Shown here: positions 57,948 to 58,286 of the stretch, one piece after another
Numbering within the stretch: the stretch's first letter is position 1
Layout of the letters: every line of letters starts with the position of its first letter
Source of the DNA: Escherichia coli
Lineage (GTDB): Bacteria > Pseudomonadota > Gammaproteobacteria > Enterobacterales > Enterobacteriaceae
Direction: 5' to 3' (one strand)
Length of the DNA stretch: 64,000 nt
Assembly (NCBI RefSeq): GCF_044324875.1
Contig: NZ_CP172185.1
Program-made: the position numbers and the translations under genes
The notes under the pieces: model-generated
The model's input: the letters and a program-made list of their open reading frames with translations, nothing else
The model's database searches: none
Told to the model about the DNA's origin: nothing

Positions 57948-58286
57948 ATGAAAAAATACTCTTCTCCCGTCCTTGCACTCATTCTTGTTAGCAACAGTAT
58001 GGTATCCTCCGCTGCCACAAAAGAAATCTCAAAAACAGCTTATGTCTGTAATGGAAATAAGACAATGGAGGTGGTCTATATCAACACCACTGCTGGGAAC
58101 TCATATGCAGTGATTAATCAGATGGATGAGATGATACCTATGCAGCTAATGAAAATGGCCTCCGGAGCCAATTACGAAGCCATCAATAAAAGATACTCAT
58201 ATAAACTGTACACAAAAGGTAAAAAAGCCAATCTGGTGGAAGGGAATGATAATCCTGTCTTAAGCAACTGTTCATCGGCCGAATGA
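57948..58286 (+). CDS. MliC-like periplasmic C-type lysozyme inhibitor
   Basis: 112 aa; signal peptide; YVCNGNKTMEVVY...MKMASGANYEA...NCSSAE with conserved Cys pair and SGA(N/R)Y motif. Confidence 0.5.
   Translation: MKKYSSPVLALILVSNSMVSSAATKEISKTAYVCNGNKTMEVVYINTTAGNSYAVINQMDEMIPMQLMKMASGANYEAINKRYSYKLYTKGKKANLVEGNDNPVLSNCSSAE

Follow-up and report, generated by a model that had tools for sequence, protein, structure and literature searches.

A probable PliC-type periplasmic lysozyme inhibitor as accessory cargo of the pheU island of Escherichia coli

In this study, we analysed a 64,000-nucleotide stretch of Escherichia coli DNA (hereafter, the window). The product of the gene at positions 57948 to 58286 (+ strand) is very probably PliC, which inhibits c-type (chicken-type) lysozyme as a soluble protein of the periplasm, and the gene is accessory cargo of the E. 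coli pheU island. We put the probability of this reading at about 0.88. Judged from its sequence, the gene is an orthologue of Salmonella pliC in the MliC/PliC family (COG3895). The identification is correct but it is not a discovery: the protein is already annotated (in RefSeq, the identical protein WP_000760915.1 is named "c-type lysozyme inhibitor"), and the family and its mechanism are already known. What is added here is the distinction between the PliC and MliC types, the pheU and selC positions, the plasmid alleles and a possible poultry bias. Our literature search found no paper characterising E. coli PliC. In 2012, Vanderkelen et al. noted pliC homologues in E. coli and raised the question of an additional pliC as the source of the inhibitory activity that persists in the periplasm of an APEC ivy mutant (PMC3458809). 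By analogy with characterised homologues, the window protein would be exported, form a disulfide, bind and inhibit lysozyme and confer a benefit in the host.

The open reading frame claimed in the initial annotation is present. It begins with the ATG at 57948, which is the earliest start codon downstream of the prior in-frame stop, and ends with the stop codon at 58284-58286. The product is a precursor of 112 amino acids (MKKYSSPVLALILVSNSMVSSAATKEISKTAYVCNGNKTMEVVYINTTAGNSYAVINQMDEMIPMQLMKMASGANYEAINKRYSYKLYTKGKKANLVEGNDNPVLSNCSSAE), whose similarity to a solved inhibitor structure (E=7.1e-40 to 3OE3) is far beyond chance. As read from the sequence, a consensus Shine-Dalgarno element, AAGGAG, lies at 57937-57942 (+), 5 nt before the ATG, and this element is also kept in plasmid-borne alleles. 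On the antisense strand under the gene, the list of open reading frames contains none of 40 or more amino acids.

The Pfam MliC profile (PF09864) matches the protein with E=3.9e-12 (46.4 bits; gathering score, 22), and the match spans profile positions 1-66 of 67. The NCBIfam equivalog NF010363, "c-type lysozyme inhibitor", gave 155.7 bits, above its cut-off of 127. The score for another model, NF010364 "lysozyme inhibitor", was 17.2 and did not reach the cut-off of 261. The nearest solved relative is the above-mentioned 3OE3, PliC-St from Salmonella Typhimurium, which shares 64 of the 90 mature residues (~71%). Furthermore, we aligned 26 homologues from Escherichia, Salmonella, Proteus, Morganella, Klebsiella and a Pasteurellaceae bacterium (alignment A1). 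The profile from this alignment reaches 3F6Z, the complex of Pseudomonas aeruginosa MliC with hen lysozyme (E=3.5e-5), and Brucella PliC (4MIR); E. coli MliC (YdhA; 2F09) is reached weakly. Thus, the MliC/PliC-family reading is supported by profile and sequence evidence and, as described below, by the predicted fold. The initial annotation had called the protein MliC-like. The family assignment stands, and the subtype is refined to soluble periplasmic PliC by the ~71% identity to Salmonella PliC and by the absence of a lipobox.

MliC proteins are lipoproteins with a lipobox, whereas PliC is soluble in the periplasm (PMC2267010, PMC3458809). By inspection, residues 1-22 of the window protein (MKKYSSPVLALILVSNSMVSSA; 57948-58013, +) are a Sec-type signal peptide, composed of an MKK n-region, a PVLALILV h-region and the cleavage region SNSMVSSA|A with Ser at -3 and Ala at -1. 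The predicted cut, SSA|ATKE, aligns with the N-terminus of crystallised mature PliC-St (ASQEISK). For Salmonella PliC, a Sec signal peptide 24 residues in length has been reported (PMC2267010). In the sequence read of residues 1-33, there is no cysteine and hence no lipobox. Because the Sec signal peptide lacks the lipobox cysteine, the protein is assigned to the PliC type and not to the MliC type, and by analogy it would be exported to the periplasm as a soluble protein. An MliC-type lipoprotein inhibitor anchored in the outer membrane would fit the name of the Pfam domain, MliC, which both types have in common, and the label "membrane-bound inhibitor of C-type lysozyme", which one source gives to the protein. 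However, the first cysteine, Cys34, is within the barrel, the equivalog of PliC is matched above its cut-off, and the identity to a periplasmic PliC is ~71%. Moreover, the mature sequence of E. coli MliC (YdhA, identical to 2F09) aligns only locally, over 40 residues around the motifs (16/40 identical, E=0.001). Therefore, a lipoprotein is extremely improbable and we rejected this identity. The restriction of YdhA similarity to the 40-residue local match also led us to reject the idea that the gene is a copy of E. coli's own mliC. Accordingly, pliC is regarded as an additional inhibitor gene of a separate lineage.

The AlphaFold2 model of the protein, built on the alignment of the 26 homologues, has a mean pLDDT of 79.8 (82-93 in the barrel) and predicts an eight-stranded beta-barrel. 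In a Foldseek search of the PDB, the top matches were chains of 3OE3 (target-normalised TM 0.92-0.95; rmsd 0.8-1.5 Å), followed by Brucella PhiA (7DPY and 7DSG; target-normalised TM 0.73-0.84), MliC from the complex with hen egg-white lysozyme (HEWL) (3F6Z_B; TM 0.74) and Brucella PliC (4MIR; 0.73-0.74). Neisseria ACP inhibitors were also among the matches. By these matches, the predicted fold is the lysozyme-inhibitor barrel. Thus, the comparison of the predicted structure with MliC was positive, the model matching 3OE3 and then 3F6Z_B.

The conserved regions of the family are SxSGAxY and YxxxTKG; in P. aeruginosa MliC, Ser89 and Lys103 contact lysozyme, and in gonococcal SliC alanine substitution of the equivalent Ser/Lys pair abolishes inhibition (PMC6033465). 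Alignment A1, chain B of 3F6Z and these published motifs place the corresponding regions of the window protein at residues 72-76 (SGANY, the core of SxSGAxY; 58161-58175, +) and 85-91 (YKLYTKG, matching YxxxTKG; 58200-58220, +). In the HMM alignment to 3F6Z_B, SGANY is opposite SGAKY and TKG is opposite TKG. Because the motifs align in this manner, Ser72 is taken as the equivalent of Ser89 and Lys90 as that of Lys103. Among the 26 homologues, S72, G73 and Y76 are invariant, and T89 and K90 are nearly so. The first motif reads M-A-S72-G-A-N-Y76: its first serine is replaced by methionine, as is also the case in the active Salmonella PliC. The second motif, Y85-K-L-Y-T-K90-G91, is complete. The conserved cysteine pair and the SGANY motif pointed out in the initial annotation were both found, the cysteines being Cys34 (codon 58047-58049, +; invariant in alignment A1) and Cys108 (codon 58269-58271, +; kept in at least 90% of its sequences). 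For PliC, it has been described that two cysteines are available for a disulfide (PMC2267010), and by analogy a Cys34-Cys108 disulfide probably forms in the window protein.

From these features and the characterised homologues, the following mechanism can be proposed. The 112-amino-acid precursor would be exported by the Sec system and cut after Ala22, giving a periplasmic protein of 90 amino acids and ~9.9 kDa. The mature protein would fold as the eight-stranded beta-barrel, probably pinned by the Cys34-Cys108 disulfide. Host lysozyme would enter the periplasm when, for example, lactoferrin or complement makes the outer membrane permeable. The loops carrying SGANY (with Ser72) and YKLYTKG (with Lys90) would then insert into the active-site cleft of lysozyme, so that peptidoglycan hydrolysis would be blocked.

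The target might instead be a bacterial or phage muramidase. The model for this idea is Brucella PhiA, which has the same fold and inhibits SagA, an autolysin of type IV secretion (PMC8334348). The two PhiA structures are among the top fold matches, as described above, and pliC lies in mobile DNA both in the island and on the plasmids; lytic transglycosylases are frequent in such DNA. However, PhiA has DLKKY and DRG opposite SGANY and TKG, and therefore lacks the Ser/Lys pair. Its identity to the window protein is 21-24%, compared with ~71% for a PliC that inhibits HEWL, and neither the window nor the plasmid loci have a muramidase gene next to pliC. Since PhiA lacks the Ser/Lys motifs that the window protein keeps, we consider a PhiA-like autolysin inhibitor very unlikely, and host c-type lysozyme is retained as the probable target.

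The properties of the window protein were compared with those of the known inhibitors. Salmonella PliC (SEN1802 in S. Enteritidis; PliC-St, 3OE3) is the closest system. The precursors are both 112-114 amino acids with a Sec signal peptide and a mature part of 90 amino acids, the motifs (MASGANY and YKLYTKG) are identical and the same cysteine pair is present. Both genes have a low GC content and are located in horizontally acquired DNA beside outer-membrane virulence proteins: Salmonella pliC is located in SPI-11 beside pagC and has 42% GC (PMC2267010, PMC6663981). Control of Salmonella pliC by SlyA has been reported. The two loci have unrelated flanks and can be aligned in the coding region only, where the nucleotide identity is 75%. 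While pliC is present in all sequenced Salmonella genomes (PMC2267010), it occurs in ~3% of complete E. coli genomes. Salmonella PliC acts as an inhibitor of HEWL, and knock-out of its gene makes the strain more sensitive to lysozyme plus lactoferrin (PMC2267010) and less able to survive in egg white (PMC6137255).

MliC (YdhA, 2F09; P. aeruginosa PA0867, solved with HEWL as 3F6Z) belongs to the same Pfam and COG3895 family and has the eight-stranded barrel, and SGAxY and (T/S)KG motifs with the Ser/Lys pair are common to MliC and the window protein. In contrast to the window protein, MliC has a lipobox and is a lipoprotein (PMC2267010). The identity to 3F6Z_B in the structural alignment is 26%, and in PliC an insertion of 4 residues sets the two motifs further apart than in MliC. 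Furthermore, mliC is a core gene of E. coli, whereas pliC is accessory. Ivy acts in the same compartment, the periplasm, and on the same target class, c-type lysozyme (PMC2267010, PMC3458809), but the same papers describe it as an unrelated family without sequence similarity to PliC. Ivy was absent from all matches in our searches. Since Ivy and MliC are already present in E. coli (PMC3458809), a phenotype of pliC may be redundant.

We next describe the location of the gene. Positions 1-12000 of the window contain core E. coli genes (epmB, groSL, aspA, dcuA, cutA, dsbD and dicD). They are followed by a tRNA-Phe gene at 12082-12157, after dsbD-dicD, which is the pheU position, and by a tyrosine integrase gene at 12355-13617. 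According to ARAGORN, Rfam and the RefSeq annotation of near-identical DNA, these two (12082-13617, +) are the island anchor. An Rfam scan of the whole window found nothing besides tRNA. Directly past the integrase gene there is a gene for a 1171-amino-acid AAA-domain protein (14069-17584), and a gene for an EptA-like phosphoethanolamine transferase lies nearby at 17693-19192. The island DNA past the integrase is a mosaic that includes IS66, IS3 and IS110 elements, a xylose/GH43 module and a TonB-dependent receptor. A conserved block then encodes, in its first half, a UgpB-like binding protein, a phytase-like esterase, an RpiR regulator, a PTS EIICB and a NanE-like epimerase, and after these PliC, a sigma-70-r4 HTH protein, a YadA-like adhesin, and a transketolase with an ascorbate-type PTS. 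The pliC gene is ~46 kb within this pheU island, and its GC content is 40.1% (window, 50.7%). Thus, the description of the gene as island cargo is borne out by the tRNA-Phe/integrase anchor, the low GC content, the flanking IS debris and the distribution in ~3% of genomes.

Downstream of pliC and convergent with it, an operon on the - strand (58643-60473) consists of the gene for the YadA-like adhesin (59160-60473) followed by that for the HTH protein (58643-59098), as assigned by Pfam and by RefSeq on identical DNA. The adhesin is a YadA-like trimeric autotransporter (Pfam YadA_anchor, E=2.8e-16), and the HTH protein of 151 amino acids is of the sigma-70 region-4 type (Sigma70_r4_2, E=2.1e-7). 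Because the genes are convergent, a single operon of pliC and the adhesin gene was rejected. The initial annotation had described this part of the island as adhesin-rich. This applies to the downstream side, where the YadA-like operon is the neighbour, but not to the upstream side, where RpiR, PTS EIICB and NanE-like genes are found beyond the IS remnant. Two minor features of the operon can be mentioned: the stalk of the autotransporter (59160-60473, -) contains an internal tandem duplication with a unit of ~30 amino acids present twice, and in strain MDR_56 IS421 is inserted between the YadA-like gene and the downstream HTH gene.

At 57551-57644 (+) there is a remnant of an IS3-family transposase gene, with 78% nucleotide identity to the rve-domain transposase gene in the loci L004 and L005. 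It marks where the sugar-utilisation module meets the pliC unit. The gap between the NanE-like gene and pliC, within which the remnant lies, is 504 bp. The homology to the plasmid allele loci begins at 57791 (L004) or 57831 (L010) and ends at 58292. Thus, a block at 57791-57947 (+) travels with pliC. Since the gap is 504 bp and includes the remnant, and since the allele homology starts only 157 bp upstream of the gene, co-transcription with the upstream PTS/NanE-like genes is unlikely. The travelling block holds a perfect TATAAT at 57899-57904, which is conserved in the upstream sequences of the plasmid alleles and is, from its sequence, a candidate -10 promoter element. The -35 region is weak, and for this reason the consensus promoter scan did not call the TATAAT. 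The AT-rich context of pliC may be silenced by H-NS.

On the other side of the gene, the terminator scan gave no usable call; its sole terminator-like match is inside pliC on the wrong strand. By folding, a perfect 9-bp stem-loop (GTGACCGTC-AGGA-CGGTCAC..., stem GUGACCGUC/GACGGUCAC) was found at 58332-58353 (+), 46 nt past the pliC stop codon. It has no U tract, its z-score is -1.4 (whole 92 nt) and the terminator scan did not call it. It is possible that this stem-loop is a transcript end common to pliC and the convergent operon. A 50-bp segment that includes the stem-loop (58306-58355) is 84% identical to L004:14951-15000, which lies behind the autotransporter gene of that plasmid; in L004, ~6.6 kb of IS and autotransporter sequence separates pliC from the stem-loop element.

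A blastn search with the ORF found pliC in 174 of 5426 complete E. coli genomes (~3%); 154 of the places are chromosomal and 30 are on plasmids. In 144 E. coli records the ORF has at least 99% identity, and the exact protein is found on at least 1000 contigs. A 23-kb module of the window (40823-64000, from the TonB-dependent receptor through the transketolase/PTS genes) is 99.7% identical in 35 complete genomes. Its position differs according to the strain. For example, it is ~50 kb from the pheU flank in strain 24A16CRGN010, like in the window, while in strain EC21Z-147 the 99.7% identical block is more than 0.6 Mb from pheU. In the APEC O2:K1:H5 strain E19035, the block adjoins yicL/nlpA in the selC region; the module at selC may correspond to AGI-3. 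The published tkt1 island was rejected as the same element: that island is located between metE and ysgA, and the paper on it does not mention lysozyme.

Diverged E. coli alleles (79-88% amino acid identity) are found on plasmids beside classical autotransporters or between IS fragments. The allele loci are L004:8001-8342, L010:8001-8339 and L013:611-949, and they lie repeatedly within 3 kb of genes for large autotransporter adhesins. Like the window gene, these alleles (for example P0009, 88% identical, and P0013, 79%) are annotated as "c-type lysozyme inhibitor", are near autotransporter adhesins and are under purifying selection. They share with the window the gene and an upstream block of 120-157 bp, and the homology is limited to the gene and at most 157 bp upstream. 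Their flanks differ from those of the window, being either porin-AraC-ProQ-PerC or Rep3-integrase-GGDEF. In two alleles the TKG motif is altered, to TQG with loss of the lysine in P0010 (L013) and to IKG in P0009 (L004). Moreover, the signal peptide of P0010 contains a lipobox-like LAGAC, a possible sign of a switch between a soluble and a lipidated form.

Compared with three diverged E. coli alleles, the window allele gave Nei-Gojobori dN/dS values of 0.17, 0.18 and 0.13 at dS of 0.42-0.70. The four E. coli alleles do not differ at residues 45-80, a 36-residue core that includes the SGANY loop. Taken together with the 144 near-identical records and the at least 1000 contigs, these values point to purifying selection on a functional product. 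We also considered whether the gene, although intact in appearance, is a silent or decaying passenger without current function in E. coli. It lies among IS fragments close to the transposase remnant, the promoter scan gave no call and its product may be redundant with Ivy and MliC. Truncated or IS-disrupted copies are also found elsewhere: the signal peptide is replaced in P0012, P0069 is fused to a transposase, and strain EC974 has a 68% match. In contrast, dN/dS of 0.13-0.18, the identical core, the strong Shine-Dalgarno element and conserved TATAAT that travel with the gene, and the wide occurrence of the exact protein are difficult to reconcile with decay. Therefore, a passenger is quite unlikely and pliC is regarded as a gene with a functional product.

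The window allele differs from its relatives in charge. With a pI of 8.56 and a net charge of +2, the mature protein (58014-58283) is basic. In contrast, Salmonella PliC (pI 4.76, net -3) and most homologues (pI 4.5-5.8) are acidic. Two charge changes, N82R and D/E95N, are unique to the window allele and flank the binding motifs; they could weaken binding to very cationic lysozymes. The hosts of the carriers were also compared. Among evenly sampled records, poultry (chickens or other) was the origin in 20 of 40 pliC-positive records and in 5 of 60 records matched by groL (Fisher p=3.6e-6, a value that ignores clonal lineage and sampling). Because clonal lineages and sampling are uncorrected, the poultry enrichment is treated as a lead only. 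In a 2026 GWAS, a "c-type lysozyme inhibitor" was associated with chicken at the same p-value as a porin and an autotransporter (PMC12987596). Since the porin and autotransporter fit the neighbourhood of the plasmid allele, we did not count this result for the chromosomal allele.

The basic charge, the changes beside the loops and the apparent poultry enrichment of the carriers in a crude sample raise the idea of extra tolerance to hen lysozyme or a shifted lysozyme preference. In this idea, the island PliC would be a host-adaptive allele, perhaps responsible for the residual activity in the APEC ivy mutant, and not a redundant third inhibitor. We regard this as a speculation with a low chance of being correct. 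If it is true, carriers could have extra tolerance to the hen c-type lysozyme of egg white, oviduct and yolk sac. It is accepted that lysozyme inhibitors help bacteria to survive innate immunity, and in chickens the MliC of E. coli contributes to the virulence of APEC. A third c-type inhibitor that is mobile and present in part of the E. coli lineages, of which many are avian pathogenic, could plausibly make a small contribution to fitness. In addition, pliC is a useful marker of its island module.

Relatives of the gene also occur outside E. coli and Salmonella. For example, ~640 Klebsiella plasmids (~175-380 kb) carry a 39-44% identical gene (such as NZ_MK347229.1:83078-83368), mostly annotated as "c-type lysozyme inhibitor". 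Therefore, PliC-family genes are common plasmid cargo in Klebsiella too.
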